Source: Candidatus Zixiibacteriota bacterium (GTDB lineage Bacteria > Zixibacteria > MSB-5A5 > SM1-73). From it: DNA of 64,000 nt. Below are positions 8,451 to 61,733 of the stretch, one piece after another; the stretch's first letter is position 1, and each line of letters begins with the position of its first letter. The DNA lies in the NCBI GenBank assembly GCA_049694315.1, contig JBAVQU010000008.1:17665-81664 (forward strand), in the 5' to 3' direction. The notes under the pieces are model-generated. The model was not told the DNA's origin, did no database searches, and was given only the letters and a program-made list of their open reading frames with translations. A program made the position numbers and the translations under genes.

Positions 8451-8475
8451 TCCGACATAGACGAATCATTTCCTT

Positions 8476-9120
8476 CTACTGTTTCTTTTCGTAGACTTTG
8501 GTCATGATAACTTTCTCTGTGGGCATGTCATTTACGCCGGTTGGAACGTGAGCGATTTTGTCCACCACGTCCATACCTTTGATTACATGGGCGAAGACCG
8601 TGAAGCCCTGACTGTCCAAGTGCGCAGTGCTCTCTGTTGATAAGCAAATATAGAATTGGCTTCCGCTGTTACCTTCTGCCGATCTTGCCATGGCTATGGC
8701 GCCGCGCTCATGCTTTTTTACCGTAGGCTCGTCGGGCAGCTTGTAGCCCGGTCCACCGGTTCCATCGCCCAAAGGATCGCCGCCTTGAATGACAAAACCG
8801 GGTTTGACGCGATGAAAAGTCAGGCCATCATAGAATCCGCTGTTGACCAATCTCAAGAAATTCTGCGCCAGCTTGGGAGACTCCTTCCAGTAAAGCTCTA
8901 TCTCCATGGTGCCCATGTTGGTTTCCATCATCACGATAGGATTCTTGTCACGCACGATCGGCTCCTGGGAGATTGGTTTGGTCTCGGTCTGGGCCTCGGT
9001 CTTAGCTACTTGGGCCGGCTGTTCCTCTGTCTTTTGCGTTTTGACCTCCTCTTTCTTCCCGCAGCCGAAGAGGAAGAAAATCAATAAAGCCGATAGAGTT
9101 AATACTAATGCCTTGTTCAT
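8476..9120 (-). CDS. ppiB: Cyclophilin-type peptidyl-prolyl cis-trans isomerase, lipoprotein
   Basis: Lipobox LFGCG. FHRVKPGFVIQGGDP...GGPGY...GAIAMARS...NSGSQFYI is the cyclophilin signature region. Confidence 0.85.
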   Translation of the reverse strand: MNKALVLTLSALLIFFLFGCGKKEEVKTQKTEEQPAQVAKTEAQTETKPISQEPIVRDKNPIVMMETNMGTMEIELYWKESPKLAQNFLRLVNSGFYDGLTFHRVKPGFVIQGGDPLGDGTGGPGYKLPDEPTVKKHERGAIAMARSAEGNSGSQFYICLSTESTAHLDSQGFTVFAHVIKGMDVVDKIAHVPTGVNDMPTEKVIMTKVYEKKQ

Positions 9121-9452
9121 CCCGGCTCCTTTGCTTAAGAAGTTTGGGAACTCTTTTCACCATCTCCTGCTTAAGAATTGCAGATCGTTCCCCGAGCGAA
9201 AATACCAAAGCGGGCACTTCCTGTCAAGACCTAATGTGGGATTCGGCGAAGAAAGATGGTTCCGGTGAAATCTGGAGGAGACGGTCTTGAGACTCGAAGG
9301 GGTAGGAGAATTCCCACCCCCTCGCCCACGGTGTTATCTGGTGTTGTCGTTACGGAAGCATCAGATTTCGGGAGTTGGTGGTCAGGAAGCCGATGTGGGG
9401 TTATGAAGTTGAGCCTATCCCAAAAATCCCCCGTTCCGAGGTTTGGCCTCCG

Positions 9453-10715
9453 TCACGGGAAAATCCCGCGTCGGTGGTATATTTTCTCCAGTCGCTCCAG
9501 CGCGGCAGCGTAAGCCGCCTTGCGCCAGTCGATCTTCTTCTCCGCGGCTTTCGTGTTTATCAAATTGAATGCATCCACTATCCTGCTGCGCAGTTTGGAA
9601 TCCACCTCATCTAAATCCCAGAATTCGCTGCGTTTGTTCTGAAGCCACTCGAAATAGCTCACGATCAATCCGCCGGAGTTACACAAAAGATCCGGGAGGA
9701 TGTCGATGCCTCTCTGCCGCAGAATCCGGTCACCGTCCGGATCGGTAGGGCCATTGGCTCCCTCCGCCACCAGCTTGACCTTGAGAAGCGGAGCCGTATT
9801 GCCCGTGATCTGATTCTCCAGCGCCGCCGGAATGAAAATGTCGGCCTGCGTCTGAAGAAAGGTAACATGATCCATCGGTTTAGCCTGGGGATACCCCTTG
9901 ATTCCGCCATTCTTTCTGACGTAAGCGGTCAAATCGTCCGGGTCTATCCCCTGAGGATCAAGGATGGCGCCGGTGAAATCCTCAGCCGCCACCAGTTTCG
10001 CTCCATGCGGTTTCAAAAGCCGGGCGGCCCAGGATCCGACCTTTCCGAATCCTTGAACCAGGTAAGTGGCCCCGGACAGGTCGAAACCTTTGAGCTTCGC
10101 CCACTCCTCCACTAAGAAAACCATCCCCTGACCGGTGGCTTTGTCACGACCCAGGCTCCCTCCCGATTTGACCGGCTTGCCGGTCACCACGTGTTTACAC
10201 GCCTGCCGTTTGTGCGGAGGAACGGTGGACAGATAAGTATCCAATATCCAAGCCATGATCTGAGCACCGGTGCTCAAGTCCGGGGAAAGGATGTCATACT
10301 CTGGTCCTATGTTGTTCCCTAAAGCGAAGGTGAACCTCCGGGTAATTCGCTCCAGCTCGTTGAATGTGAATTCAGACGGGTTGAACCTGATTCCGCCGTT
10401 GGCACCTCCCATGGGGATATTGGCGATGGCCGCCTTCCAGGTCGTGCAAGTGGCTAAGGCACGCACTTCTTCCAGCTCCAGTGCAGGATGATAGCGTAAT
10501 CCGCCCTGAAACGGCCCCATCACATTGTTGTGCTGCACCCTGAAGCCGGTAAACATCTCCACCCGACCATCGTCCATCTTCACCGGGAAATTGACCACAA
10601 TCTCGTTGGCAGTTTTAGCCAGCATTCCGCGGACGTCGGGATCTAACCCAATCATTTTGGCCGCGTCATCCACATGCTCGATCACGGTATCGCAGAAACT
10701 CTTTTGTTTTGCCAT
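9453..10715 (-). CDS. gdh: Glu/Leu/Phe/Val-family dehydrogenase (glutamate dehydrogenase, about 420-aa type), paralogue 1
   Basis: WKAAIANIPMGGANGGI, the GTGAQIMAW-type region, VQGFGKVGSW (Rossmann) and EGANGPT are all present. Confidence 0.85.
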   Translation of the reverse strand: MAKQKSFCDTVIEHVDDAAKMIGLDPDVRGMLAKTANEIVVNFPVKMDDGRVEMFTGFRVQHNNVMGPFQGGLRYHPALELEEVRALATCTTWKAAIANIPMGGANGGIRFNPSEFTFNELERITRRFTFALGNNIGPEYDILSPDLSTGAQIMAWILDTYLSTVPPHKRQACKHVVTGKPVKSGGSLGRDKATGQGMVFLVEEWAKLKGFDLSGATYLVQGFGKVGSWAARLLKPHGAKLVAAEDFTGAILDPQGIDPDDLTAYVRKNGGIKGYPQAKPMDHVTFLQTQADIFIPAALENQITGNTAPLLKVKLVAEGANGPTDPDGDRILRQRGIDILPDLLCNSGGLIVSYFEWLQNKRSEFWDLDEVDSKLRSRIVDAFNLINTKAAEKKIDWRKAAYAAALERLEKIYHRRGIFP

Positions 10716-35577: not shown

Positions 35578-36690
35578 ATGGCAATTAGTGAGGAATTAAA
35601 ATATGCTGACTTAGAGGAACTCTATATCGACCCACTGAATCCGCGACTTGGTAGAGGTGATGTAGCTGAAGATATAAGCCAAGCTAAGGTGCTTGAGCTA
35701 ATGAAGGATTGGACTCTCGACGAACTGGCGGTGTCATTTCTTGAGAGTGGGGGTTTCTGGACACAAGAGGCTTTACTTGTAACCAAAGAAAAACTGAAAG
35801 GTAAAGAACGTTTGGTGGTAATAGAAGGCAACCGAAGACTCGCTGCGCTGAAATACCTGAAAGATGCACTAGAAGGAAATCCAGCATCTCCTAGATGGAA
35901 AGAAATTGCACGCGGAGCAAAACCGCCAAAAGATCTCTTTACAAGAATTCCATACATACTAGTTGATTCACGTAAAGATATTGAATCGTTCTTAGGCTTT
36001 AGGCATGTAACCGGAATAAAGGAATGGAAACCAGCGGAGAAAGCTGAGTTCATCGCGCGTTTGATTGATGACCGAGGTTTTTCTTATGAAGAAGTTAGAC
36101 GTAAAATCGGTAGTAAGACACCTACGGTTCGTCAGAACTATATCTCGTACCGAATGTTATTACAGATCAAGGACTCAGATCAACAAATCCCTAAAGAGAA
36201 TTTCGAAGAGCGTTTTAGTGTGATGTTCCTTTCCCTAAGAGAAAAAGGTGTTCAGAAATTCCTTCAGATCGCCATAATGGCTGAACCAAAAAAGGCTCAA
36301 AAACCAGTACCAAGGACGCATCTTAAGGCTCTGGGTAACTTCGCCTTGTGGTTATTTGGTGATGAAAATCGGGAACCTCTTTTTACAGATTCGCGTCAAG
36401 TAACTAAGTTCGGGCGCATACTAGAGAGTAGGGATGCTCTTGAATACCTCGAGAGAACCGAGAACCCTAACTTTGAAGTTGCTCACCAACTCGCAGGTGG
36501 AGATGAACCTGAAATAGCAAAACAACTTGAGAAAGCTGCAGATAACATTGAGGTTTCATTGACTCGTGTGCATCTATACAAGAAATCAAAAGACATTCGA
36601 AAAGCAGTAAGTAGATTAGTAGCTGATTCGATGCAGCTATTTGAAATCTTCCCTGATATCAAAACCCAGGTCGAGAAGGATCGCATGTAA
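35578..36690 (+). CDS. ParB/sulfiredoxin N-terminal-domain-like protein
   Basis: IDPLNPR at the N-terminus and VIEGNRRLAAL (ParB-N-type (D/E)GNRR box). SD agaggcgaaaa. Lies in an AT-rich island. Confidence 0.6.
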   Translation: MAISEELKYADLEELYIDPLNPRLGRGDVAEDISQAKVLELMKDWTLDELAVSFLESGGFWTQEALLVTKEKLKGKERLVVIEGNRRLAALKYLKDALEGNPASPRWKEIARGAKPPKDLFTRIPYILVDSRKDIESFLGFRHVTGIKEWKPAEKAEFIARLIDDRGFSYEEVRRKIGSKTPTVRQNYISYRMLLQIKDSDQQIPKENFEERFSVMFLSLREKGVQKFLQIAIMAEPKKAQKPVPRTHLKALGNFALWLFGDENREPLFTDSRQVTKFGRILESRDALEYLERTENPNFEVAHQLAGGDEPEIAKQLEKAADNIEVSLTRVHLYKKSKDIRKAVSRLVADSMQLFEIFPDIKTQVEKDRM

Positions 36691-37628
36691 TGTTTCAATT
36701 GCCGACGAATGGCATTGCTCGTTCAATAAACGAGCATAATTCCAGATTAGATGTCTTTAGTGATTGGCTAGAGGCTTCTGTTCTTTTCAGCGATAGTGAG
36801 CTTTCACGAACGGATGTTGTTGATGCTTTGATCGAACATAGAATCTACGATCAGCAAGACTTCGCTGATCAGTGGGTCACTAACGCATGGGGGGAAATAG
36901 AGCGACGACAAAAGTGCATAGGTAATGGATCGCCGTACGATATTACACCACAAAGAATTTCCAGAAAGTCATCTTGGGAAGATGTCTCTGCATATAGTTT
37001 TTGTTTGCTACTTTCTTTAGTAAACAACTACTCTGGTTTAAATGGACAATGGCAAGAGAAATTTCGAACTGGTTACATCGAACAAGGTGAGCTATTTGAG
37101 CTACTTACTAAGGAATCTTTGGAAAAACAATTCCCTGACTGGAGAATGTATCATACTGGCTGGTCAAGATCATCTCCAAGTAAGTTGATAAAAATTGTTG
37201 ATGAAATTGCGGCACAGCTTGGTGAAACCAAGGGTAATCTTGAACTATGGACATCACCTGATGCACATGAAGCTGGGTTGGATTTGCTTTTTTACAGACC
37301 TTTTGAGGATAACCGAGTCGGTATTCCTCTTTATTTGTTGCAATGTGCAAGCGGGGGTAATTGGACAGACAAACTCCATACTCCATGCTTGAAGACATGG
37401 ACTAAAGTCATTCAATTTGCAGCAACACCACGTAAAGCTTTCGCTACGCCATTTGCACTTGAAGATGGCGTTTTTTGTGGGTATTGCAATCTTGTCGACG
37501 GTCTTTTTCTTGATCGATATCGACTACTTAGCCCTTCTCATGAAGATAAAAACTGGCTTTCAACACAATTGAATAACCGGATTAAAAAGTGGCTCAGACC
37601 CAGAATTAAAACCTTTCCAGCTTATTAA
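36690..37628 (+). CDS. Hypothetical protein, translationally coupled to the ParB-like gene; possible PD-(D/E)xK nuclease
   Basis: TAATG overlap with the upstream stop. GELFELL...EAGLDLLFY...LLQCASGGNWTDK is reminiscent of the Mrr_cat layout; this is weak by-eye evidence. Confidence 0.5.
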   Translation: MFQLPTNGIARSINEHNSRLDVFSDWLEASVLFSDSELSRTDVVDALIEHRIYDQQDFADQWVTNAWGEIERRQKCIGNGSPYDITPQRISRKSSWEDVSAYSFCLLLSLVNNYSGLNGQWQEKFRTGYIEQGELFELLTKESLEKQFPDWRMYHTGWSRSSPSKLIKIVDEIAAQLGETKGNLELWTSPDAHEAGLDLLFYRPFEDNRVGIPLYLLQCASGGNWTDKLHTPCLKTWTKVIQFAATPRKAFATPFALEDGVFCGYCNLVDGLFLDRYRLLSPSHEDKNWLSTQLNNRIKKWLRPRIKTFPAY

Positions 37629-37653
37629 AACGATATACGAATTGAGTGGAAGA

Positions 37654-38958
37654 ATGAAATTCATAGACCTCTTCGCGGGACTCGGTGGTTTTCATTTAGC
37701 ACTCAGACGCTTGGGACATGAATGTGTTTTTGCATCTGAGCTGGATGAACAATTAAGAGAAGTCTACCAACAGAATTTTGATTTGAGGCCGGAAGGTGAT
37801 ATTCGTCAAATCAGTCCTAATAGAATTCCTGCTCATGATATTCTTTGTGCTGGATTTCCCTGCCAGCCATTTTCAAAAGCAGGCGAGCAGGAAGGTTTTG
37901 GGTGCCCCAAATGGGGTGATCTTTTTGATTATGTTCTTTCTGTTCTTGAACACCATCGTCCTTCCTATGCTCTCTTGGAGAATGTTCCGAATCTTCTTTA
38001 CCATAATAATGGTAAAACATGGAAATCTATTCTCTTAAAGCTACATTCTTTAAACTACCATATTGATCACAAGAAACTCTCGCCACATAAGTTTGGTATT
38101 CCCCAAATTAGAGAAAGAATCTTCATAGTTGCTAGCCAATCGCCATTAAACGGTTTCTCGTGGCCAATACCGCCAATTCAATGTGAGCCACATATTAAAT
38201 CAATTTTGGATGAGCATCCCAAGAATGCTAAACCTATAACACCTACAGTCCAGATGTGCTTGGATACATGGCAGAAATTCCTTGACTTATTTCCTAAAGA
38301 CGAAACACTCCCTTCATTCCCGATTTGGGCGATGGAGTTCGGAGCCACATATCCATACATAAAGATAACTCCTTATTCTATAGGTAACTACCGCTTGCGA
38401 CAATTCAGAGGCTCATTTGGCCAATCCCTTGACAAAACAGAACCCTCGAAACGATTAATGTTTTTACCTCCATATGCACGAGTTAAAGAACACTCATTTC
38501 CTGCTTGGAAGGTGGAGTTCATTACAAAGAACCGCAATCTTTTTGAGAAGAACAAGAAGTGGATAAAACTATGGCTGCCAGAAATAAGAAAATTCCCAGC
38601 AAGTTTGCAAAAGCTTGAATGGAATTGTGGCTCGGAGCCACGTAATGTCTATAATTATGTCATCCAGTTTAGAGCTTCTGGTGTGCGCATCAAGAGACCT
38701 TCAACATCCCCCTCCCTTATAGCGATGACCACAACACAAGTTCCCATAATCGCATGGGAAAAACGTTACATGACGCTGCATGAATGTGCGCACTTGCAAT
38801 CGATGGATGAATTAAAGTATCTCCCCTCTTCTGAAACCCGTGCTTACAAAGCACTTGGAAATGCTGTCAATGTCAACTTGGTTATGATGATTGCGAAGAA
38901 TTTACTATCTTCCTCTGATAGAAAAAAGATCTCTCAATTGGAAAGCAAGGTAATTTAG
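37654..38958 (+). CDS. dcm: DNA (cytosine-5)-methyltransferase
   Basis: Motif I DLFAGLGG, motif IV GFPCQPFS, motif VI ENVPNL, motif VIII QIRERIFIV, motif X LGNAVNV. An alternative TTG start lies at 37642. Confidence 0.9.
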   Translation: MKFIDLFAGLGGFHLALRRLGHECVFASELDEQLREVYQQNFDLRPEGDIRQISPNRIPAHDILCAGFPCQPFSKAGEQEGFGCPKWGDLFDYVLSVLEHHRPSYALLENVPNLLYHNNGKTWKSILLKLHSLNYHIDHKKLSPHKFGIPQIRERIFIVASQSPLNGFSWPIPPIQCEPHIKSILDEHPKNAKPITPTVQMCLDTWQKFLDLFPKDETLPSFPIWAMEFGATYPYIKITPYSIGNYRLRQFRGSFGQSLDKTEPSKRLMFLPPYARVKEHSFPAWKVEFITKNRNLFEKNKKWIKLWLPEIRKFPASLQKLEWNCGSEPRNVYNYVIQFRASGVRIKRPSTSPSLIAMTTTQVPIIAWEKRYMTLHECAHLQSMDELKYLPSSETRAYKALGNAVNVNLVMMIAKNLLSSSDRKKISQLESKVI

Positions 38959-39026
38959 CACAGTTTTTCAAGTTCTCACTAACGCTCACTCTTATATTTA
39001 TTTTTCATATCCGTCCGTTTCCAAAT

Positions 39027-39590
39027 ATGAATAATCGCTACCCTTCATACCGTAGCTTTCAACCATCTAATGCGATTTCCTCCGCCAATAAGAAGATGGT
39101 GAAATCAGCTAATACAAGAGCTGAAATTATTCTCCGTCGCTCATTAAGAAAGGCAGGTATGCACTTTCGCATTAACGACCTAAGCATTCCGGGCAAACCC
39201 GATCTTACCTTTCCTCGTTATAAGGTAGCTATTTTTTGTGATGGTGATTTTTGGCACGGCAGAGATTGGCGTCAACTTCGGAAAAAGTTAATGAATCGTG
39301 CTAATTCCTCTTATTGGATCGCTAAGATAATTGCTAATCGTAAACGTGATAGAGCAGTGAATCATCTCTTGTCAAAAATGGGATGGATTGTTGTCCGTAT
39401 CTGGGAAACCGATATTTTATCAGATATCGATAGAGTTTCAAGTTCTCTTTTGCTTCTTTTACATAAAGGTAAGCTCGTCAAAACCTCGTGCCGCGGCGCC
39501 GCTTCTGCAGCCGACACAAGAAAGGGTAACGGGGCACTGCGAAAAAAGAGAAAGAGCCTCACCTATCGTCCCCGCGACAACACGACTTAG
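39027..39590 (+). CDS. vsr: Very short patch repair endonuclease (Vsr) with a C-terminal basic tail
   Basis: SAN...EI.LRR.L...G..FR.N....PGKPDL.F......IFCDGDFWHG, followed by IVVRIWE. Confidence 0.85.
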   Translation: MNNRYPSYRSFQPSNAISSANKKMVKSANTRAEIILRRSLRKAGMHFRINDLSIPGKPDLTFPRYKVAIFCDGDFWHGRDWRQLRKKLMNRANSSYWIAKIIANRKRDRAVNHLLSKMGWIVVRIWETDILSDIDRVSSSLLLLLHKGKLVKTSCRGAASAADTRKGNGALRKKRKSLTYRPRDNTT

Positions 39591-52130: not shown

Positions 52131-52466
52131 TCAACGGATCAAACTCACCATCTCTGCTTTCAACTCGCGGACGTCCTTCTCTGCGGCAGCAGACCGGCAG
52201 AGCACTACCACCTGTTCATCCCTGCCGAATCTATCCTTGTTCCTCCTCAGAAATTCCCGGATCATTCTCTTGAGTCTGTTTCTTGAAGCCGCCTTTTTGA
52301 TCCCCCGGGCGACTTTGATGCCGAACTTTTGTCCCTCATGGTGATCGGCCCGCAGCCGGAATACGACTAAGCTCGCCCCTCCTCTCCTGGCGCCGTGTTC
52401 CAGGATTCGCTTGAACTCAAATTCCTTTTTGACAACTAAGGTTTTGGGGAATCCTTCGTTTTTCAA
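52131..52466 (-). CDS. rnpA: Ribonuclease P protein component
   Basis: 111 aa basic protein between rpmH and yidD. K.A..RNRLKR..RE motif. Confidence 0.85.
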   Translation of the reverse strand: MKNEGFPKTLVVKKEFEFKRILEHGARRGGASLVVFRLRADHHEGQKFGIKVARGIKKAASRNRLKRMIREFLRRNKDRFGRDEQVVVLCRSAAAEKDVRELKAEMVSLIR

Positions 52467-52491
52467 ATAAGGTCACTCTGTGCCGGAGAGG

Positions 52492-52638
52492 TTACTTGGG
52501 AACCCGAACAGTCAATCGGGCTCGACCTTTGGCCCGACGTCTTTTCAGAGTCTTTCTGCCGCCCTTGGTGGACATTCGTTTCCGAAAACCGTGCTCCCTG
52601 GCCTTTTTCACGTTAGAGGGCTGAAAAGTTCTTTTCAT
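52492..52638 (-). CDS. rpmH: 50S ribosomal protein L34
   Basis: Not in the ORF track. Minus-strand translation is [48 protein letters not shown] (48 aa), preceded by SD aaaggagac. Confidence 0.95.
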
Positions 52639-52782
52639 GCTGTCTCCTTTTTATGCTCGCCACGCCATTAGCGTTCCAATATACGCGCCGATCCCATGTC
52701 CGTCAAGAAAAAAGTGCCGCTCGCCGCTGCGGCTGCTGAATAAAAAATCTTGACTTTTCATTCTCTGTAGGTTAATTAAATA

Positions 52783-52811
52783 TTGACGGCGGAGAATAAT
52801 CCAAATAAAAT
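52783..52811 (+). promoter_or_regulatory. Candidate sigma-70 promoter of the DCD / GNAT-ASCH operon
   Basis: TTGACG, 17-nt spacer, TAAAAT, about 40 nt upstream of the ATG at 52853. Confidence 0.4.
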
Positions 52812-52852
52812 TTCATATTTCTTAACTATAAGGGTAATCAACATATCAACAA

Positions 52853-53974
52853 ATGAGCAAAGAAGACTATAAAGAGTTTAGACCTGGTGTTCTAAATCAA
52901 GAGCAGGTTCTTAATCTAGACGGAGCAGTGATTCACAATTTAAAAAACGAAGCTGTTGATCTTTCTGCCTTTGACCTACATATATCTCAACAAGGCTGGG
53001 AAATGAAAGGAAGTATAAAAGCTTCACAAAATACAAATATAGACAAGATAATTAGAGAATTCAGTGAGCACGCCTTGTCAAACGGTGGACCATGGATACT
53101 TAAAACCGGTAAAACCTATATTTTTGCATTACGAGAATATCTCACACTCCCGAATAACAGCAAGCTCTTTGGCCAAGCTACCGGTAAGAGCTCGATAGGG
53201 AGATTGGATGTACTTACGAGATTAATGGTAAATAACTGCCCCTCTTTTGATACAATAAAAGATGATGGCTATAAGGGGAGTCTTTATTTAGAGGTCACCC
53301 CGATCACTTTCCCAATACAAGTTCAGGAGGGCAATGCTCTTTGCCAATTGAGACTTTTTAGGGGTTTACCTGAATGGAGTGAAATCAAAGAAGAGGAACT
53401 ACAACTGTTTGGTCCAATGATTTTAAAAGAGGATGGAGAACCGAAAATAGTAGATGTGAAAGAACTTACTGTAAACCTAATGCCCGATGAAAAAGGGATT
53501 TCTGTATTTGGGACTAAAGAAAAGAAAGAAATTGAGGAGAAGAATATAGTCGTGGATTTAACCAAAGGAACGGAGTTCCACAACCCCAAAGAGTTTTGGG
53601 AAGATATTAAGTTGAAAAAAGACTTTACATTGGAAATAACACCAGAAAGATTTTATATTCTCAGATCAAAAGAAAGATTTAAATTACCTCTTAATGTAGC
53701 TGTTTCTTGTCAGGCTGTTTCTGAGACCTTAGGAGAGTTAAGAATTCACTATGCTGGTTTTGTTCATCCGGGTTTTGGTTTTGACCGAGAGAAAGGGACT
53801 CCAATAATATTTGAGGTGAGAGGACATAATGTCACGACATTTCTACGTGATGGTGAGACGCTTGCCCACTTCAAATATTATTGGATGTCGGAACGTTGTA
53901 AAGAACAGAAAAAAAGTGGTTACGAAGAACAGGAACTGAAACTTTCACGATACTTCAAGGAATGGACTAAATGA
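52853..53974 (+). CDS. Long-form 2'-deoxycytidine 5'-triphosphate deaminase (DCD, dUTPase-fold) family protein
   Basis: GKSSIGRLDVLTRLM....FD.....GY.G.LYLEV.PITFPI.V..G..L.QLR...G in the first half. FYILRSKE...LP.......QAVSETLGELRIHYAGFVHPGFGF......TPIIFEVRGH and C-terminal LKLSRYF in the second half. This matches my recollection of the about 360-aa DCD family. Confidence 0.7.
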   Translation: MSKEDYKEFRPGVLNQEQVLNLDGAVIHNLKNEAVDLSAFDLHISQQGWEMKGSIKASQNTNIDKIIREFSEHALSNGGPWILKTGKTYIFALREYLTLPNNSKLFGQATGKSSIGRLDVLTRLMVNNCPSFDTIKDDGYKGSLYLEVTPITFPIQVQEGNALCQLRLFRGLPEWSEIKEEELQLFGPMILKEDGEPKIVDVKELTVNLMPDEKGISVFGTKEKKEIEEKNIVVDLTKGTEFHNPKEFWEDIKLKKDFTLEITPERFYILRSKERFKLPLNVAVSCQAVSETLGELRIHYAGFVHPGFGFDREKGTPIIFEVRGHNVTTFLRDGETLAHFKYYWMSERCKEQKKSGYEEQELKLSRYFKEWTK

Positions 53975-54999
53975 AAGCAGAAGGTAACCTATTTACAGAA
54001 CTAAGTGTAAACCGAAATCTGAAAGTGATCAAGTTTGGTGGAGATTTCGTGCCTCCTCCCGATTCCTTGAGACATTTAGAACAGTTGGTGGAGGAATGCG
54101 AGGATCTTTATCCAGGCATAGATATTTGGTTCAAGAAGAAAGTTATGCCTGATCTACAAGAAAAGAACAGGGTTGCCTTTTTGGTTTACAACGATTCTCG
54201 TCCTATCGGTGCGGCAGTAGCTCGAAAAGGAGATGACACCAAACTATGTAGCCTTAGGGTTCTTCCGGAAGAACAGAAGAAGGGACTTGGGCATCTTTTA
54301 ATTGCTCTAATAGCAAACGAGGTCAGAAATACAGCTTCACATGTTCATTTTACCGCTCCTTCCAGGTTATGGTTTGAATTGGAACAATTCTTTAAAAGTT
54401 ATGGATTTGTAAATAATGGACTCGCCGGAGTTCAATATCGACTTTTTGATGAAGAATTATCTTGTAGCGCAGATTATAAGGATATCTGGAGTGGTGTGGT
54501 CAACAAACTTCCTGCTATTATTGAGAATTTCACCTTAAATGGAAACAGATCACACTGCGATTTAGTACTTAGTATCCAACCAGATTTTGCAAAAAGAATA
54601 ATTCAGGGAAGAAAAAGGGTAGAAATTAGACGAAGATTTTCAGAAAGATGGAAAGGTGCTTCCACTCTAATTTATGCTTCTTCTCCTGATAGGCATTTCG
54701 TTGGAGAGGCGATAATAGATGATGTCATAACAACTTCGCCTGAAAGGATTTGGTCAAATTGGAAAGATGAAATCGGGTGTACTTATGTTGAATTTGCTTC
54801 ATATTGCAAGGGTGCTTCAGAAGTTAGTGCCATAATATTCAAGGAAGTCAAACCATTTAAGGACCCTATACCACAGATACAGATGGAACAGCTATTACAA
54901 AAGGATTTAAAAGCACCTCAGTCATATTTAGAAGTAAAAAAACAGACGGTATGGCCTACCGCACTGTCCCTCAGTTGTCTTCTTCGCACGAATGTTTAG
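53971..54999 (+). CDS. GNAT acetyltransferase - ASCH domain fusion protein
   Basis: ATGA overlap with the upstream gene. GNAT motif A region LCSLRVLPEEQKKGLGHLLIA. The C-terminal half (LVLSIQPDFAKRIIQGRKRVEIRRRF...LIYASSP.RHFVGEAIIDDV) has an ASCH/PUA-like pattern. Confidence 0.6.
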   Translation: MKAEGNLFTELSVNRNLKVIKFGGDFVPPPDSLRHLEQLVEECEDLYPGIDIWFKKKVMPDLQEKNRVAFLVYNDSRPIGAAVARKGDDTKLCSLRVLPEEQKKGLGHLLIALIANEVRNTASHVHFTAPSRLWFELEQFFKSYGFVNNGLAGVQYRLFDEELSCSADYKDIWSGVVNKLPAIIENFTLNGNRSHCDLVLSIQPDFAKRIIQGRKRVEIRRRFSERWKGASTLIYASSPDRHFVGEAIIDDVITTSPERIWSNWKDEIGCTYVEFASYCKGASEVSAIIFKEVKPFKDPIPQIQMEQLLQKDLKAPQSYLEVKKQTVWPTALSLSCLLRTNV

Positions 55000-55497
55000 A
55001 GTGGCCTTTTGATTTAATCTCCCACCGCCAGGATCTGAAAAGGAACATCTCCTTGGTCGTGGAATATCTTGCTTAGTCTATATCCTGATCTGTGCCCGCC
55101 GAAACTAACTGAATGCCATGACAATACAGATAAATTACATTCCTCGCACAGGCAATTCACTATTGTCTTCATTTCAAACATTCCAAAACCTTAGCAACCA
55201 AGCTAAATTTGTGCTTCCCTAAAGAGGGAAATAGGGAGTTGTCAATCATCACCAACGCCAAAGAATCGGACCGCTCTTCGATCGACCAACCGCAACTCGA
55301 ATTCTCAGGATTGCTCCACCCGATGAGAACAGTTGATCGGCGTAATGATATGACAAAAAATAGAATAGCCAGTCCGCTCGCGGAAAACATGAGTCGAATT
55401 CAAAATCAGAGACGGCAGGAACCCCCTCCAGAACTCCCTTCTAAGAAAGTCAGGTCATGCAACTTATAAGTTTTCTTCGGTCACCCCATAAAAAGCC

Positions 55498-55526
55498 TTG
55501 ACAAGGAAATCCAAGAGGGTTATTTT
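55498..55526 (+). promoter_or_regulatory. Candidate sigma-70 promoter upstream of dnaA
   Basis: TTGACA, 17-nt spacer, TATTTT, located just upstream of the DnaA boxes. Confidence 0.35.
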
Positions 55527-55565
55527 GAAGGACGTGAACCCATAAGTGATTATCTGTTAACAAGA

Positions 55566-55715
55566 TGTGGATAATCTGTGACAATTTCGCAAGTCTATAC
55601 GAATGATAAGCTAACGGGGGTTCCAGTTTCCTCCTTGATTGTGGATAACATTCTTTCCTTGGACATGGAAGCATCCATAAACACCCACCATTCACAAAGA
55701 TAGAGTTTTTCCACA
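55566..55715. promoter_or_regulatory. DnaA-box cluster upstream of dnaA
   Basis: Perfect TGTGGATAA at 55566-55574 and 55640-55648. TTTTCCACA (1 mismatch, opposite orientation) at 55707-55715. Confidence 0.7.
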
Positions 55716-55817
55716 AGTGTTGGTAACTTGTTGCTGGTTACTCGCACCCGATTGAGCCGGATACCAAGCGAGAGAGACTTTGTATTTGTACTGGAAAACA
55801 CAAGAGGGCGATTCCAT

Positions 55818-57170
55818 ATGGAAACGGATGGCGCGAGACTCTGGGAAGACTGTCTATCGCATTTGAGAAAAAGAATAAGACAGCAAAGCTTCTGCACCTG
55901 GCTGAGAGCCACACGGGGGCTTCCATCTCCCGAAGGGTCAATCCGGGTGGCCGTACCCAACAAGTTTGTGGCGGATTGGCTGGAGGAGCACTATCTGAGC
56001 CTGATCAAGGAGAGCCTAAAGGAAGTGGCTCAGGGCGAGTTGTCTTTAAGCTTTCACCTATCCAAGGACTCACAGAATTATCACCCTCAGATGAGCATGA
56101 ATTTCGATCAACCGCCCGCCAGAAAGTCTGCTGCGCAGCTTGCTCCCGAGAAAGGGCTAAATCCGAAGTACACTTTTGAAGCCTTCGTGGTGGGAGAGAG
56201 CAATCAGTTTGCTCACGCCGCCGCCATGGCAGTGGCCGAGGCTCCAGGCAAAACGAAGTACAACCCGCTGTACGTTTACGGCGGAGTCGGCCTGGGCAAG
56301 ACTCACTTGGCTCAAGCCATCGGTCACTTCGCTCTGGATGCCTACGAAGGCATAAAGATACTCTACGTGACCAGCGAGAAATTCACCAATGATTTCATCA
56401 GCTCCATCACCTCCAACACCACCCAGGAGTTCACCAGTCTCTATCGAAACGTAGACATCCTGCTTTTGGACGACATTCAATTCTTCACCGGCAAAGAGAG
56501 CACTCAAGTTCAATTCTTTCATACCTTCAACGTGCTTTACCAGAATGGAAAGCAAATCGTTTTGACCTCGGATCGTCCCCCCCGGGAGATAAGAGGAATA
56601 GAGGAGAGGCTTCTGTCGCGCTTCCAGCAAGGACTGGTCACCGACATTCAGCCGCCGGACTTGGAGACCCGCATAGCCATCCTCAACAAGAAAACCGAGT
56701 CCGACAATATCTCCATTCCGATCGAGGTAGCCACCTTTATCGCAGACAACATAACCTCCAACATTCGCGAGCTGGAGGGATCATTGATTCGCCTCTTGGC
56801 TTACGCCTCTCTGAATTCCAAAGAGATCACCGTGGATTTGGCCAAGGAGGTTCTGAAAGATACCATAAGAAATGGAACTAGGGAGGTTACCATAGACCAG
56901 ATCCAAAGAAAAGTGGCTGCCGCCTATAGTCTTTCTCCGGAGAGCCTATGCTCCAAGAGGAAAACCCAGGAGATCGCGTTGGCTCGCCAGGTGGCGATGT
57001 ACTTGTCCCGCAGCCTCACTAATGGCTCTTTGAAAGCCATCGGCTTGCATTTTGGCGGAAGGGATCATTCAACTGTGATCTACGCTTGCAGTTTGGTGGC
57101 TGAAAACCTAAAACTGGATCACGCTTTTAAGTTAAAGGTTGATTTAATCATCAACTCTCTTTATGTTTAA
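55818..57170 (+). CDS. dnaA: Chromosomal replication initiator protein DnaA
   Basis: NPLYVYGGVGLGKTHL (Walker A), LLLDDIQF (Walker B), SNIRELEG, and C-terminal HFGGRDHSTVIYA. I start it at ATG 55818 (METDGARLWEDC). Confidence 0.95.
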   Translation: METDGARLWEDCLSHLRKRIRQQSFCTWLRATRGLPSPEGSIRVAVPNKFVADWLEEHYLSLIKESLKEVAQGELSLSFHLSKDSQNYHPQMSMNFDQPPARKSAAQLAPEKGLNPKYTFEAFVVGESNQFAHAAAMAVAEAPGKTKYNPLYVYGGVGLGKTHLAQAIGHFALDAYEGIKILYVTSEKFTNDFISSITSNTTQEFTSLYRNVDILLLDDIQFFTGKESTQVQFFHTFNVLYQNGKQIVLTSDRPPREIRGIEERLLSRFQQGLVTDIQPPDLETRIAILNKKTESDNISIPIEVATFIADNITSNIRELEGSLIRLLAYASLNSKEITVDLAKEVLKDTIRNGTREVTIDQIQRKVAAAYSLSPESLCSKRKTQEIALARQVAMYLSRSLTNGSLKAIGLHFGGRDHSTVIYACSLVAENLKLDHAFKLKVDLIINSLYV

Positions 57171-57418
57171 ATGATGTTACTTTCTTCTGGTTAACTGGTG
57201 GAAAACAACACCTTTGGATTGGCTGGATCATGGAGTAAACTCCCTTACACATATTAGTTAACAGACGTCAAAATAATCAGATATACATAACTTAAACCAA
57301 GACAATCTTATACACCAACTATTTAAGATGTATTAACATTTCAACACCATTATTCATTATTATTTAAATTTGATGTCTTTAATATGAATTCTAAAGAAAA
57401 CTTAAAGGAGAGTGTTCT
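57171..57418. other. AT-rich dnaA-dnaN spacer; candidate DNA-unwinding part of oriC
   Basis: Very AT-rich, for example cattattcattattatttaaatttgatgtctttaatatgaattc. Only degenerate DnaA-box-like sites are present (gtggaaaac, ttatacacc). Confidence 0.4.
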
Positions 57419-58534
57419 ATGAAATTTTCACTGCCCAAAAGCAAGATATTTTCTTGTGTTCAAACGGTCATGAATGCCGTTCCTACGCGCACCACCCTGC
57501 CGGTTTTGTCCAATATTCTCCTAGAGGTCTCCGATTCAAAACTCAAGATAGCTGCGACCGATCTCGATCTATCGGTGATCACCACCATCCCGGTCGCATC
57601 CACCAAAAAGGAAGCGATAACCATTCCGGCTAAGACCTTCTATGACATATTAAGAGAGCTTCCCGAATCGGAGGTAGACATCCATGCGGCTGAGAATCGC
57701 ATGGAGTTGAAGGCTGAAAGGGGAACCTATAAGTTGTCGGGAATCCCGGCTGAGGAGTATCCCAAACTGCCGACGGTGAATCTTGCCAAAGAAATAAAAA
57801 TCCCAGGTATCGACTTGGTTAGGATGATTAAGAGAACCATCTTTGCCGTCTCCACCGACGAGACCCGACCGGCCCTGAATGGAGTCTTATGGCAGACATC
57901 CGGCCACAACATGCAGATGGTAGCCACGGATGGTCATCGGTTAGCCAAGATGTCTTCAAAGAATAGCAAACTCAAAGGTTTGCACGAGGACGTCATCATA
58001 CCTCCTAAGGTGCTAAACCTCTTAATAAAACTGACAGGAGAGGATGAAGCGCAGGTCGGGGTGATCTTCGCCGAAAACAGCATTATCTTTAATTTGGGTG
58101 ACACCATCTTAAGTTCACGTTTGATCGAGGGACCCTACCCCAATTTCGACCAAGTGATCCCCAAACACAATGGCAAAAAGCTGGTAGTCAACAAGGAATT
58201 CTTGGCCAGTGCGGTCCGAAGAATGTCGATTTTGGCCAACACCCTGACTCATCAGGTGAAGTTCTCCTTAAAAAAAGACACCATAGAGCTTTCCTCCGCC
58301 AATTTTGACTTAGGCGGCGAAGCCAAAGAAACTGTGCCTTGCGATTATACCGGTGAGCCGATGGAAGTCGGATACAACGCCAGTTATGTCTTGGACATCC
58401 TCAGGCAGATGGACGGGGACGACGTGGTCTTTGAGTTGGGGACCCCGGTGTCAGCCGGCAAGGTGTATTCCACTGAATGCAAGGAGGGGGAGGATTATCT
58501 TTGTCTCTTGATGCCTCTTCGTTTAGCAGAGTGA
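57419..58534 (+). CDS. dnaN: DNA polymerase III beta subunit (sliding clamp)
   Basis: 371 aa. LSNILLE...LKI.ATDL, TRPALNGVL, ATDGHRLA, EG.YPNF..VIP, and C-terminal LLMPLRL. Confidence 0.95.
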   Translation: MKFSLPKSKIFSCVQTVMNAVPTRTTLPVLSNILLEVSDSKLKIAATDLDLSVITTIPVASTKKEAITIPAKTFYDILRELPESEVDIHAAENRMELKAERGTYKLSGIPAEEYPKLPTVNLAKEIKIPGIDLVRMIKRTIFAVSTDETRPALNGVLWQTSGHNMQMVATDGHRLAKMSSKNSKLKGLHEDVIIPPKVLNLLIKLTGEDEAQVGVIFAENSIIFNLGDTILSSRLIEGPYPNFDQVIPKHNGKKLVVNKEFLASAVRRMSILANTLTHQVKFSLKKDTIELSSANFDLGGEAKETVPCDYTGEPMEVGYNASYVLDILRQMDGDDVVFELGTPVSAGKVYSTECKEGEDYLCLLMPLRLAE

Positions 58535-59422: not shown

Positions 59423-61051
59423 ATGAAGATTCCAAGGAAAAAGGAGCTCCTGAAGCTCCAGGCACAATATCGAACCGATAAGAAGATTGGCGAAGCGTTG
59501 GGTGGAGTGCCGGAGTATTTAGTGGCCTACTGGAGAAGGAAGAAGAAGATCGGGCAGTACTCCAGCCTCAAATACTCCTTCAGGGAGATCAACGACCTGT
59601 GGGAAACCTACGGTAATGACCGGAAGGCCGGCGACAAGCTGGGCATCTCCAAGGCTGGATTCTATAAGTGGCGCAAGAAATACGACCTTTTGGAGAAGCC
59701 CAAAGTACTCAGGTTTCAGCAGCTGGAGTTCTCCTTAGCTGGACAGCGCGGTTCTTCGGAAGGTCAAGACATGCTGCTTAAGCGGAATTCAGGAAATCTC
59801 TCCATAGCCCAGAAGCTTCTGGCTAAAAAGACGGGGAAACCCGAAACCGTAGTGGGAGAAATCGTGAATGTGGAACCGGACCTGGCCATGAGCCACGATA
59901 ACGCCGGTCTGGTGATAAAGCAATTCAAGCAGATCGGCCAGGCCCGGGTGTGGAATCCGGACAAGATCGTCATCCCCCTGGATCATCGCGCTCCGGCGGA
60001 ATCAGAAAAAACCGCCACCGCGCATAAGTCCATCCGGCAGTTTGTCAAAGAGCAAGGAATCAAGAACTTCTACGACATACGGGAGGGAATCTGTCATCAG
60101 GTGGTGTTAGAGAAGGCTCACATTCTGCCGGGGGAATTGGCTCTGGGAACCGACTCACATACCACCTCTTACGGCTGTGTAGGCGCCTTGTCCACGGGCA
60201 TAGGCGCTACGGAGATGGCGGCAGTCTGGGCCACCGGGAAAATCTGGCTGAGAGTGCCGGAGTCGATGAAGATAGTCATCCAAGGAAAAATGCCCAAAGG
60301 GGTTTATGCCAAAGACGTGATACTCTATATCATAGGTCAACTTACAGTGGAAGGCGCAAATTATAAGTCAGTGGAATTTTATGGTGAGACCGTGACCAGA
60401 ATGTCCGTCTCCGAAAGGTTCACTGTGTGCAACCTCTCCATGGAGATGGGGGCAAAATTCGCCGTGGTCCCGTTTGACCGGGTTACCGAGAGATACTTGT
60501 CGGCCATAACCAGTCAAAGATACCAGCCGATCTTTTCGGATGCCGAAGCCATTTTTGAGAAGGAATATGCGTTTGAAGTAGGTGGCTTAGAGCCTCAGGT
60601 CGCCTGTCCCCACAACGTGGATAACGTTAAACCGATAAGCCAAGTGAAGGGCATAAAGATCGATCAGGTGGTGTTGGGTTCCTGCACCAACGGCAGATTG
60701 GACGATCTGGAGATCGCAGCCCGAATTCTCAAAGGGAAGAAAGTCAGCCCGGAGACCAGGATGCTGGTGTTGCCTGCGACCAGAACGGTGTACCTGCAAG
60801 CCATGAACAAAGGCTATCTCAAAGCCTTTGTGGATGCCGGGGCGGTGATACTAAACCCCGGATGTGGGCCTTGCCTGGGGGCGCACGAGGGAATCTTAGC
60901 CGCAGGAGAAAAGTGTCTGGCTACGACCAATCGCAATTTTAAGGGGAGAATGGGATCGCCGGATTCCGAAGTCTACTTAGGCAGCCCCGCCCTGGCGGCC
61001 GCCACGGCCATCAAAGGAGAAATCGCGGATCCGAGGGAGTTCTTGAAATGA
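59423..61051 (+). CDS. leuC: 3-isopropylmalate dehydratase/homoaconitase-family large subunit with an N-terminal extension of about 116 aa
   Basis: Aconitase core from LSIAQKLL (DHRAP, GTDSHT, GSCTNGR, GCGPCLG, NRNFKGR). The in-frame upstream 116 codons are basic and HTH-like. An internal ATG at 59771 would give a canonical 426-aa protein. Confidence 0.8.
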   Translation: MKIPRKKELLKLQAQYRTDKKIGEALGGVPEYLVAYWRRKKKIGQYSSLKYSFREINDLWETYGNDRKAGDKLGISKAGFYKWRKKYDLLEKPKVLRFQQLEFSLAGQRGSSEGQDMLLKRNSGNLSIAQKLLAKKTGKPETVVGEIVNVEPDLAMSHDNAGLVIKQFKQIGQARVWNPDKIVIPLDHRAPAESEKTATAHKSIRQFVKEQGIKNFYDIREGICHQVVLEKAHILPGELALGTDSHTTSYGCVGALSTGIGATEMAAVWATGKIWLRVPESMKIVIQGKMPKGVYAKDVILYIIGQLTVEGANYKSVEFYGETVTRMSVSERFTVCNLSMEMGAKFAVVPFDRVTERYLSAITSQRYQPIFSDAEAIFEKEYAFEVGGLEPQVACPHNVDNVKPISQVKGIKIDQVVLGSCTNGRLDDLEIAARILKGKKVSPETRMLVLPATRTVYLQAMNKGYLKAFVDAGAVILNPGCGPCLGAHEGILAAGEKCLATTNRNFKGRMGSPDSEVYLGSPALAAATAIKGEIADPREFLK

Positions 61052-61104
61052 TAACCACCCAAACAACCGGGGGGAACCTTTGGAACCTCTTTTGAAAACG
61101 TGAG

Positions 61105-61332
61105 GTGATGAGATTGGAGATCGTTTTCAGCCGACATGCAAGAAGGCAGATGAGATGGAGAGATATCAGCGAACAAGAAGTCAAACAGACCCGGTCTGAT
61201 TACGATAGAATAGAAGACTCCGTTAGGACAAGAAAAAACGCTTTGAAGAAAATCGGGAAAAGGTTGATAAAAGTGACCTTCAGGGAAGAGGACGACAAAA
61301 TCCTTGTAATAACGGCCTTGGTAAGAAAATAG
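61105..61332 (+). CDS. DUF4258-family protein (putative toxin)
   Basis: 75 aa. FSRHARRQMRWRDISEQEV is the typical DUF4258 N-terminus. Confidence 0.65.
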   Translation: MMRLEIVFSRHARRQMRWRDISEQEVKQTRSDYDRIEDSVRTRKNALKKIGKRLIKVTFREEDDKILVITALVRK

Positions 61333-61352
61333 GCTAGAAGCGGGGAGTTCTT

Positions 61353-61568
61353 ATGAAAATAGAATACGATAAACAGGTTGATGCGCTCTATATCAGGATT
61401 CAAGAGAAGAAGGTTGCTCAAACCAAAGAAGTGGCCGACGGTGTGAATCTGGATTTGGACGAGACTGGTAAACTGATCGGTCTTGAGATATTGGGGGCGA
61501 CCGAGAGATATTCTCTGTCGGACATCTTCAATTTGTCTTCGGAAAACCTGATATTGGAAAAACAGTAA
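61353..61568 (+). CDS. DUF2283-family protein (putative antitoxin partner)
   Basis: 71 aa. YDKQVDALYIRI......E....V.LD.DETGKLIGLEIL.A is the typical DUF2283 pattern. Confidence 0.65.
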   Translation: MKIEYDKQVDALYIRIQEKKVAQTKEVADGVNLDLDETGKLIGLEILGATERYSLSDIFNLSSENLILEKQ

Positions 61569-61733
61569 AACTCTCGCGAGATGAAACCGAAAAGAAGGGA
61601 ATATTTCCCTAATCACTTAGTGTTGTCCGGGCGAGTGTTTAACCTCAGCCCGATCCGGGAGACAAAGCAGAGCCGAGAGGCAACTTCTATCGATCCGCTT
61701 AATCGGGTGTGAGACTGTAACGATTCCACGCAT

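Follow-up and report, generated by a model that had tools for sequence, protein, structure and literature searches.

The window analysed here, a 64,000-nt stretch of DNA from a Candidatus Zixiibacteriota bacterium (GCA_049694315.1, contig JBAVQU010000008.1, positions 17,665 to 81,664), carries between rpmH and dnaA a cassette of two overlapping open reading frames (ORFs). ORF1 encodes a long, two-domain member of the deoxycytidine triphosphate (dCTP) deaminase family DCD, and ORF2 encodes a GNAT acetyltransferase-type domain fused to an ASCH domain. The two genes constitute an obligate unit that moves between genomes. Judged by the relationships of its proteins, the cassette is best read as a DCD-linked relative of the Gev/PDC-M11 kind, and we tentatively propose a conflict cassette of two genes that spreads horizontally, most likely serving as an anti-phage or abortive-infection module. 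This proposal is drawn from the kinship to Gev/PDC-M11, from a kinase–DCD fusion and a natural three-domain fusion among the relatives, and from the mobility of the cassette.

The gene pair and its site of insertion

The comparison covered 24 loci with a relative of either the GNAT-ASCH or the DCD gene (34–81% identical; L002 duplicates L001, and L019 duplicates L005), from Zixibacteria, Calditrichota, LCP-89, WOR-3, Stahlbacteria, Bacteroidota, Aminicenantes, and others. The DCD gene lies directly upstream of the GNAT-ASCH gene, on the same strand, in 23 of them (four of these DCD genes are partly cut by a contig end), and in the 24th the contig end cuts inside the GNAT-ASCH gene. The same pairing rule holds in a second large clade, which includes Planctomycetota and Acidobacteriota records. 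In 18 of 19 independent pairs, the two genes are spaced by −14 to +21 nt, the exception (−68 nt) arising from start-codon choice. Matrices of pairwise identity for the DCD and GNAT-ASCH proteins correlate (r = 0.91; Mantel test, 0/2000); among close relatives, the DCD protein diverges faster (mean identity 67%, vs. 82% for GNAT-ASCH), and at long range both are at ~40%, with the inter-domain region (approximately residues 175–265) the most variable stretch of the DCD. Additionally, the partners occur as a single protein in P0261, a natural DCD-GNAT-ASCH fusion of 724 amino acids (aa) (L111, 6001–8175, on a 21-kb contig) that retains the KSSxGRxD, LYLEI, YPxIxxW, GxKxxExR, and PPQS motifs. A further fusion, P0407 (597 aa; JGI 3300071358 and 3300071325), joins an AAA_17 P-loop kinase to the N-terminus of a long DCD, with a 362-aa ORF starting 4 nt after it.

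The family is small, comprising 172 clusters at an expectation value (E) of 1e-30 or below among 1.84 billion representatives, and a single peptide pattern, which gives a lower bound, finds at least 16 matches among 185,579 species-representative genomes. The neighborhood of the cassette differs in nearly every locus examined, and its guanine-plus-cytosine content (GC) is below that of the flanks in 29 of 29 loci, by 0.01 to 0.24. In IMG/VR the pair is present in only one contig among 2.9 million viral contigs, which argues for a cellular rather than a viral cassette, and no DCD homolog was found in 50,697 phage genomes. Phage-borne hypermodification as the principal explanation was rejected on these two results.

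The features of the locus, in window positions and with the basis of each assignment, are as follows.

Up to 52638, minus strand: yidC, yidD, rnpA, and rpmH, left of the pair (ORF list)
52492–52638, minus strand: rpmH gene (ORF list)
52492–52710, minus strand: rpmH and its conserved promoter block, the native left flank (ORF list, promoter scan, relatives)
52706–52678, minus strand: rpmH promoter, TTGACG-17-TATATT (promoter scan; block common to L025, L030, L031, and L067)
52742–52852, plus strand: cassette leader (similarity to L001; promoter-like match)
52853–53974, plus strand: ORF1, long two-domain DCD, 373 aa (ORF list)
53971–54999, plus strand: ORF2, GNAT-ASCH fusion, 342 aa (ORF list)
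54058–54480, plus strand: GNAT domain, approximately residues 30–170 of ORF2 (Pfam Acetyltransf_10, _7, and _1)
54553–54960, plus strand: ASCH domain, approximately residues 195–330 of ORF2 (Pfam ASCH, PF04266; PDC-M11B; 5GUQ)
55005–55077, plus strand: accD 3′ fragment, 24 codons (similarity to full-length accD of relatives)
55440–57170, plus strand: native right flank, the dnaA control region and dnaA (similarity to relatives, DnaA boxes, ORF list)
Right of the pair, plus strand: dnaA (probable start ATG 55818) and dnaN (ORF list)

The ORF1–ORF2 cassette is an insertion in the rpmH–dnaA spacer. Neither an ORF1 nor an ORF2 relative is present in any of 80 dnaA loci from metagenomic relatives (DnaA 47–85% identical to that of the window), and the rpmH–dnaA gap, which, where rpmH is present, is 678–706 bp in ten of the closest relatives and 1134 bp in L029, is 3180 bp here. 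On the left side, BLAST similarity to the rpmH side of the relatives stops at ~52650, and the aligned promoter block is common up to ~52710. Window positions 52742–52860 are 80% identical to L001 6760–6878, directly upstream of the L001 DCD gene, and the L001 cassette sits in a genomic context unlike the rpmH–dnaA spacer; thus, the cassette brings its own leader, and the left end of the insert lies at about 52742.

Immediately after the ORF2 stop, positions 55005–55077 encode the last 24 codons of AccD (…WPFDLISHRQDLKRNISLVVEYLA, with the stop in register). This fragment shares 76–77% identity with the 3′ terminus of full-length accD in L001, L002, and L006, the closest relatives, where that gene lies directly upstream of the cassette; there is no complete accD within the window. 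The order in L001 and L006 (accD end, leader, DCD, GNAT-ASCH) is therefore circularly permuted here (leader, DCD, GNAT-ASCH, accD end), which suggests that transfer ran through a circular or tandem intermediate of an accD-linked copy. Similarity to the native spacer of the relatives is back by ~55340 in the alignment, and by BLAST at 55440–55460 (72–80% identical); on the right, the insert ends somewhere between 55078 and ~55335. A search for target-site duplications and terminal inverted repeats at the insert ends gave only short, chance-level repeats. In L001 and in L006, the DNA that follows the cassette holds no second accD-like (attR-type) copy. No tRNA gene was found anywhere in the window, no Rfam match in 52400–55900 at E ≤ 1, and no recognizable recombinase with the insert; for the tail at 55000–55440, the accD scrap is the sole match, and the regions beyond other cassettes have nothing conserved that corresponds to it.

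The window contains just two perfect DnaA boxes (TTATCCACA), at 55566–55574 and 55640–55648, and a third with one mismatch is at 55707–55715. All three are intact, upstream of dnaA and beyond the insert; given this cluster just past the insert, the cassette landed beside the replication origin. The dnaA–dnaN spacer (57170–57419) is very AT-rich (GC ~0.34), and may be the oriC unwinding element.

The pair (2147 nt) has a GC of 0.385 and is the lowest-GC 2.1 kb within the window: windows of the same size elsewhere have a mean of 0.494 (standard deviation 0.033, minimum 0.401), giving z = −3.3. GC at third codon positions (GC3) is 0.33 for ORF1 and 0.31 for ORF2, vs. a mean of 0.59 over 34 other ORFs. 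The ORF1 stop and ORF2 start share an ATGA (ACT AAA TGA / ATG AAA GCA, 53965–53979). A sigma-70-like match, TTGACG-17-TAAAAT, lies at 52783–52811 and agrees with 10 of 12 consensus positions in the promoter scan; this putative promoter is a consensus match in an AT-rich region that holds 18 such matches vs. 7.1 expected.

An earlier note on this DNA had described the two ORFs with their ATGA overlap, the AT-richness, the promoter match, and the rpmH and dnaA flanks, and every one of these particulars is borne out. It had also proposed horizontal acquisition, suggesting that composition be compared with the flanks and that the pair be sought elsewhere, and it had held that a conserved position next to dnaA with host-like composition would speak against the idea. 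Acquisition stands: the pair is absent from the dnaA loci of the 80 relatives and changes neighborhood, its composition departs from that of the rest of the window here (GC 0.385 vs. 0.494; GC3 0.33 and 0.31 vs. 0.59), its GC falls below that of the flanks in all 29 loci compared, and the accD scrap accompanies it. A lack of co-occurrence elsewhere, which the note had also held would refute it, is not seen: DCD and GNAT-ASCH genes are adjacent in 23 of 24 loci as well as in the second clade. Even if a defensive role should fail, the locus is a clean, datable insertion next to dnaA and oriC with a scrap of its former neighbor, and a useful example of promoter-bearing cassettes that move without a recognizable recombinase.

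The encoded proteins and their kinship

ORF1 matches the Pfam models DCD_N (E 8e-34, 117 bits vs. a cut-off of 21.4), DCD_C (1e-35, 123 bits vs. 22), and DCD (8e-36, 124 bits vs. 27), and consists of two tandem dUTPase-like domains, with both domain models above their gathering scores. It matches the Agrobacterium tumefaciens structure PDB 2R9Q at E 2e-42; its AlphaFold2 (AF2) model (pLDDT 86.8) aligns to 2R9Q in Foldseek with TMq 0.77–0.81 and TMt 0.87–0.89, and each half of the model superposes on ordinary Dcd and dUTPase enzymes. The deaminase catalytic set is intact in the N-domain: S113, R117, and E147 are invariant in 18–20 family members and in five further loci, and align with the Mycobacterium tuberculosis enzyme as well as with S111, R115, and E138 of Escherichia coli Dcd. 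ORF1 is ~30% identical to alpha-proteobacterial long DCDs and scores 231.3 bits against NCBIfam PRK07559, below the equivalog cut-off of 283; by these scores, it is a member of the long-DCD fold family but not an equivalog of the alpha-proteobacterial enzyme. The partner-linked DCDs form clades apart from the stand-alone housekeeping type: in both clades encountered they have an invariant His in the C-domain motif F[VA]HPxFG (ORF1 residue 305, window ~53765–53767), and the stand-alone type and 2R9Q have Asp (FFDPGFG). This His could be used as a marker of the partner-linked subfamily. A literature search on PF06559/2R9Q found no relevant paper.

The AF2 model of ORF2 (pLDDT 86.4) has two domains, GNAT and ASCH, with a helix between them. 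For the GNAT domain, Acetyltransf_10, Acetyltransf_7, and Acetyltransf_1 all exceed their curated Pfam cut-offs, many GNAT structures are matched in Foldseek (E 1e-8 to 1e-6), and the acetyl-CoA motif A (Q/RxxGxG/A) is present as Q102-K-K-G-L-G107, of which G107 is invariant. The domain aligns with the GNAT domain of PIN-GNAT-EVE proteins at 95.9% probability in hhalign, both having the family-specific YPxxDxW…K and KxC motifs. Membership of the TmcA/NAT10 group was rejected, as no DUF1726/Helicase_RecD or tRNA-binding domain is recognized by Pfam and the group is absent from the top 50 structural matches; likewise, neither its domains nor its 50 best structural matches support membership of the TacT/AtaT-type GNAT toxins.

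The ASCH domain scores 24.9 bits against a Pfam cut-off of 21.2, and the best match of ORF2 residues 189–323 to a solved ASCH structure is ZmASCH (PDB 5GUQ; E 1e-23; Foldseek TMt 0.80–0.86). The GxKxxExR octapeptide is present as G-R-K215-R-V-E218-I-R220, with K, E, and R invariant; Y235 and S318, equivalent to ZmASCH Y47 and S128, are also invariant, and PPQS is found in every member checked. ZmASCH is a stand-alone, 147-aa nucleic-acid binder, reported to be a Mg-dependent nuclease for single-stranded RNA, in which Tyr47 and Ser128, the residues mutated in the ZmASCH study, contribute to nucleic-acid binding. ASCH/PUA domains are classically tied to RNA-modifying enzymes, and ASCH and other PUA-like domains read modified bases (PMC7641849). 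A preprint reports that all tested ASCH proteins took N4-acetylcytidine (ac4C) off tRNA in vitro, and that the ASCH Lys and Glu are essential for this removal (bioRxiv 10.64898/2026.02.27.708502); the ASCH-like BapA is a 5-hydroxymethylcytosine (5hmC) DNA glycosylase that acts in defense.

ORF2 is further related to PDC-M11, one of the PADLOC PDC systems, which are candidates proposed from their embedding in restriction-modification, BREX, DISARM, or Hma loci. The ASCH domain matches PDC-M11B at E 9.7e-26 (88 bits) over model positions 7–132 of 142 (126 covered) and, by this match, is a clear member of the PDC-M11B/GevA family. The GNAT domain matches PDC-M11A at E 8e-7 over model positions 164–286 of 486; true PDC-M11A members score 1e-120 to 1e-136. 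The match is thus not full-length, and neither the Pfam scan nor the AF2 model contains an EVE or PIN domain in ORF2. GNAT and ASCH are in a single 342-aa chain in all family members, not in the separate genes of PDC-M11. E is 2e-133 for GevT against PDC-M11A and 7e-52 for GevA against PDC-M11B; the genes of these two proteins lie in the lambdoid phage PhiR47_2 (PV340567.1) between cI and kil (the rexAB slot), and that record labels them ‘GevT toxin’ and ‘GevA antitoxin.’ Other ASCH relatives belong to plasmid operons, of GNAT(-EVE), ASCH, and AAA_17 kinase genes in Vibrio and of HTH-ASCH, PIN-GNAT(-EVE), and AAA_17 genes in Rhizobium. Such operons, to which PDC-M11 and GevT/GevA correspond, are those of Bell et al. 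(2020; PMC7641849), who followed Iyer et al. (2013). In view of the PDC-M11A and PDC-M11B matches and the hhalign result, ORF2 is a single-chain relative of both Gev components that has neither EVE nor PIN.

The earlier note had assigned gene 1 to the long dUTPase-fold DCDs and gene 2 to a GNAT-ASCH fusion, and both assignments hold, the first by Pfam, 2R9Q, and Foldseek matches and the second by three GNAT families and ASCH above their cut-offs; loss of the catalytic residues, which it had thought would count against gene 1, is not seen on alignment. Its choice of YqfB as a guide to the ASCH domain has to be given up: a YqfB-like ac4C nucleoside hydrolase was rejected as a model, since the closest proteins are of the ZmASCH/GevA type, and ZmASCH, the closest solved ASCH protein, is inactive on free ac4C. 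Nor is the combination wholly undescribed, as had been supposed. The GNAT and ASCH theme is already known as a prediction: GNAT-EVE proteins were proposed to acetylate a DNA base (Iyer et al., 2013, as cited in Bell et al., 2020; PMC7641849), (PIN)-GNAT-EVE and ASCH operons were described as predicted toxin–antitoxin systems (Bell et al., 2020; PMC7641849), and PDC-M11 and the Gev annotation belong to the same theme. What appear to be undescribed in the literature searched are the GNAT-ASCH single-chain fusion, the loss of EVE and PIN, and, above all, the obligatory long DCD; no paper found in the search joins ASCH and a dCTP deaminase in one system.

Proposed function, neighborhoods, and rival explanations

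Under the proposed defensive reading, ORF1 would be the nucleotide-pool effector, by analogy converting dCTP to deoxyuridine triphosphate (dUTP), starving replication of dCTP, and raising dUTP. ORF2 would be a nucleic-acid-directed acetyltransferase, with the ASCH domain as the built-in (cis) counterpart of the separate ‘GevA antitoxin,’ serving as reader, eraser, or antidote; it would bind RNA or DNA, possibly at modified or N4-acetylated cytosine, and keep the GNAT domain and/or the DCD silent until infection. Translational coupling, co-divergence, and the natural three-domain fusion suggest that ORF1 and ORF2 act as one complex, which would be unleashed on infection. In support of this, the kinase–DCD fusion P0407 parallels the AAA_17 gene of Gev operons, and also the kinase-plus-deaminase layout that the zinc-dependent defensive dCTP deaminases reportedly have. 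A more specific version, in which one machine joins a dUTPase-fold dCTP deaminase, as the anti-phage nucleotide-pool effector, to a fused ‘toxin–antitoxin’ GNAT-ASCH protein able to place an ac4C-type acetyl mark on cytosine in nucleic acid and to read or erase it, is unlikely as a whole.

If a role in defense or abortive infection is correct, a structurally unrelated, dUTPase-fold dCTP deaminase would join the nucleotide-depletion arsenal, two families without an established role (long DCDs and Gev/PDC-M11 GNAT/ASCH proteins) would gain a testable handle, and it would suggest that ASCH domains, known as ac4C erasers and in one case for 5hmC excision, work alongside an acetyl ‘writer’ in immunity. 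The acetyl-mark machine, if real, would tie nucleic-acid acetylation directly to nucleotide-depletion immunity, amount to a second, convergent invention of dCTP-deaminase defense, and for the first time assign a function to the long DCDs and to GNAT/ASCH proteins of the Gev/PDC-M11 type. The cassette is easy to clone, being compact (2.15 kb coding) and having its own leader.

Several points weigh against a defensive role. Most cassette neighborhoods consist of housekeeping genes rather than defense islands; those seen include accD with a LuxR regulator, Lon with HSP20 and dTDP-sugar genes, AlaRS, an ECF sigma factor, and aminotransferases. ORF1 matches no PADLOC family at E up to 1, and the stand-alone alpha-proteobacterial long DCD resembles a housekeeping enzyme and lies among housekeeping genes; we know of no biochemical characterization of any long DCD. 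In ORF2, the usual motif-B Tyr of GNATs (YxxxGF) is an invariant Phe (F141), so that acetyltransferase competence is likely, not certain. GNATs vary at this catalytic position, and other invariant residues of the domain (K91, C93, H126, Y156, and R157) could replace the missing Tyr. The low GC could partly be intrinsic to the ORF1 and ORF2 genes rather than a sign of recent transfer. The function ascribed to PDC-M11 rests on a guilt-by-embedding prediction and the PV340567.1 annotation, in which the GevT and GevA labels are those of the depositor, and the literature search found no publication on Gev. Furthermore, ZmASCH showed no activity toward free ac4C, and the level of ac4C in tRNA was not lowered by it in vivo (bioRxiv 10.64898/2026.02.27.708502).

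A minority of copies adjoin mobile or defense-type genes. In L112 (1400–13200), the pair (100% to the family by hhalign) is flanked on each side by insertion-sequence transposases and has WYL, AbiEii, and AbiEi genes as neighbors; the P0407 locus adjoins Multi_ubiq, DUF6791-ThiF (E1), and BubE genes and an M78 peptidase with an XRE regulator; a HigBA-like toxin–antitoxin pair is downstream of the cassette in L114; and HNH, DNA-methyltransferase, DUF559, and HepT-MNT genes are near that of L005. The sole cassette of the viral collection (L110/L115; IMGVR_UViG_3300009873_002608, 8001–10351) is at a host–prophage border, between host BlaI, BlaR1, and peptidase S51 genes and prophage genes for terminase GpA, a lambda-type portal, and an S49 protease, and has a GC of 0.51 vs. 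0.62 on both sides. Overall, the association of the cassette with defense islands is weak and qualitative.

Other features were observed near these cassettes and elsewhere in the window. MazG and a small extra GNAT gene are directly upstream of the pair, on the same strand, in L113 (5345–9263), and a PNP_UDP_1 nucleoside phosphorylase gene is upstream in L005 (4016–4861) and L024 (5098–5928). Relative to the syntenic L003, a gene for a 513-aa N6/N4-methyltransferase–Mrr/NA-iREase fusion is inserted in L004 (3184–4725), in a dTDP-sugar operon 2 kb downstream of the cassette. In the window itself, a second AT-rich islet (35578–39590; GC 0.41–0.42, GC3 0.32–0.38), 14 kb from the cassette, has an ORF that matches PADLOC PDC-M38A (2e-17) and PD-Lambda-5_A (4e-13), alongside genes for a C5 cytosine DNA methyltransferase (PF00145, 5e-67) and for a Vsr endonuclease (7e-17), plus an unknown ORF of 312 aa; this is probably a 5-methylcytosine restriction-modification or defense islet. 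Positions 61000–61600, after an aconitase-family gene, show a GC dip (0.42–0.44) with strong positive GC and AT skew.

The housekeeping neighborhoods raise the alternative of an accessory metabolic or RNA-modification operon, mobile but physiologically beneficial, for example in cold anoxic sediments, which we regard as rather unlikely. ORF1 would then give dUTP/dUMP for thymidylate synthesis, presumably as the alpha-proteobacterial long DCD does, and ORF2 would be a tRNA or rRNA acetyltransferase whose PUA-like ASCH domain binds the substrate. Catalytic residues as in housekeeping Dcd enzymes, the fold match to 2R9Q, and the classical link of ASCH/PUA domains to RNA-modifying enzymes would suit such an operon, as would the mostly housekeeping flanks and the occurrence of PNP_UDP_1 near the cassette in L005 and L024 and of MazG upstream in L113. 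A beneficial operon accords poorly, however, with a pair found in none of the 80 dnaA loci of close and distant relatives, with few matches among the 185,579 species-representative genomes (at least 16, by the single peptide pattern), and with a position that changes in nearly every genome, always at a GC below the flanks. The partner-linked DCD clades, moreover, are distinct from the stand-alone type by the diagnostic Asp-to-His change, ORF1 is under the NCBIfam equivalog cut-off (231 vs. 283 bits), and the kinship of ORF2 is specifically to PDC-M11/Gev and not to known RNA acetyltransferases, with no helicase domain of the TmcA/NAT10 type.

Another alternative is a selfish, toxin–antitoxin-like addiction cassette, one that has no anti-phage role and persists since its loss kills the cell. 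Its toxic activity could be dCTP depletion or dUTP flooding by the DCD, or acetylation of RNA or aminoacyl-tRNA by the GNAT domain; its neutralizer could be an ASCH domain that reverses or blocks the GNAT, as GevA is annotated to do against GevT, or a GNAT that acetylates and silences the DCD. This is distinctly unlikely: ORF2 has what would be the toxin and the antitoxin domain in one stable chain, which removes the differential-stability logic of classical toxin–antitoxin systems, the DCD partner has no precedent as toxin or antitoxin, and many toxin–antitoxin systems prove to be defense systems, such that the explanation overlaps with the defensive one. Strict pairing, gene overlap, solitary insertions among housekeeping genes, and low GC nevertheless agree with addiction, as do the HigBA-like pair (L114) and the AbiE system (L112) adjoining some copies, the toxin and antitoxin annotations of GevT (PDC-M11A) and GevA (PDC-M11B), and the prediction of toxin–antitoxin function for (PIN)-GNAT-EVE and ASCH operons (Bell et al., 2020; PMC7641849). 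Very unlikely is a system of nucleic-acid marking, in which the GNAT would write an acetyl mark (e.g., N4-acetylcytosine) on DNA or RNA of the cell itself, or on dCTP not yet incorporated, the ASCH domain would read or edit it, and the DCD would remove unmodified dCTP, to yield a self/non-self label or phage-type hypermodification. Enzymes that remove dCTP accompany phage base-replacement pathways, which counts in favor of this. In addition, PUA-like/ASCH domains read modified bases, BapA is a 5hmC glycosylase in defense, and GNAT-EVE proteins have been proposed to acetylate a DNA base (Iyer et al., 2013, as cited in Bell et al., 2020; PMC7641849). Against it, there are only two genes, without a polymerase, nuclease, or restriction partner; the pair is in one of 2.9 million viral contigs, and that one at a prophage border; the 50,697 phage genomes hold no DCD homolog; and it is implausible that a cell would have C replaced throughout its genome.

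Comparison with known systems

The anti-phage or abortive-infection module proposed here most resembles the PDC-M11/Gev operons, with which the DCD and GNAT-ASCH cassette has in common small, overlapping, AT-rich, mobile genes and a link to an AAA_17 kinase, a separate gene in Gev operons and fused to the DCD in P0407. In PDC-M11/Gev, however, GNAT and ASCH are two genes, with EVE or PIN domains, whereas the cassette has them in one chain without either. The long DCD is an obligate partner in the cassette, is absent from the PDC-M11/Gev operons inspected, and goes unmentioned in Bell et al. (2020). PDC systems are embedded in restriction-modification or BREX loci, unlike the cassette in any locus examined.

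For the individual proteins, ORF1 has in common with the alpha-proteobacterial long DCD (PF06559/PF22569, PRK07559, 2R9Q) the two-domain dUTPase-like fold, the KSSxGRxD and LxxE catalytic motifs, and a C-terminal YxxQxLKLSK tail; that enzyme stands alone, whereas ORF1 is partner-linked, ~30% identical to it, and has His instead of Asp in F[VA]HPxFG. ZmASCH (5GUQ, 5GUS, 5Y6B, and 5Y6C) and ORF2 both have GxKxxExR and the Y47/S128 equivalents, but ZmASCH stands alone and the ASCH of ORF2 is the C-terminal domain of a predicted acetyltransferase. The YqfB-type ac4C amidohydrolases (PMC6972931) and ASCH tRNA erasers likewise have in common with ORF2 the ASCH fold and the Lys/Glu/Arg octapeptide (GKER type). 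YqfB itself, however, has Thr for the motif Glu, and the ORF2 ASCH domain is of the larger, ZmASCH/TRIP4-like type with a nucleic-acid cleft.

CapRel-SJ46, a fused toxin–antitoxin phage sensor, combines a presumptive toxin-type and an antidote-type domain in one chain, as ORF2 would if the GevT and GevA annotation is correct; it has no homology to ORF2, is of another enzyme class, and acts alone, whereas ORF2 is always with a DCD. The closest functional parallel for ORF1 may be the anti-phage dCTP deaminases, which reportedly act in nucleotide-depletion defense and include AvcD, and with which ORF1 has in common a predicted outcome: dCTP is removed and deoxyuridine nucleotides rise. Those enzymes have a zinc-dependent cytidine-deaminase fold unrelated to the dUTPase-like beta-barrel of ORF1, and the known ones are single genes, whereas ORF1 has its obligatory GNAT-ASCH partner; a P-loop kinase-like domain is associated with them, and among the ORF1 relatives with P0407. 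ORF1 is thus not a member of the anti-phage dCTP deaminases of PADLOC and DefenseFinder, but, by analogy, may work alike.

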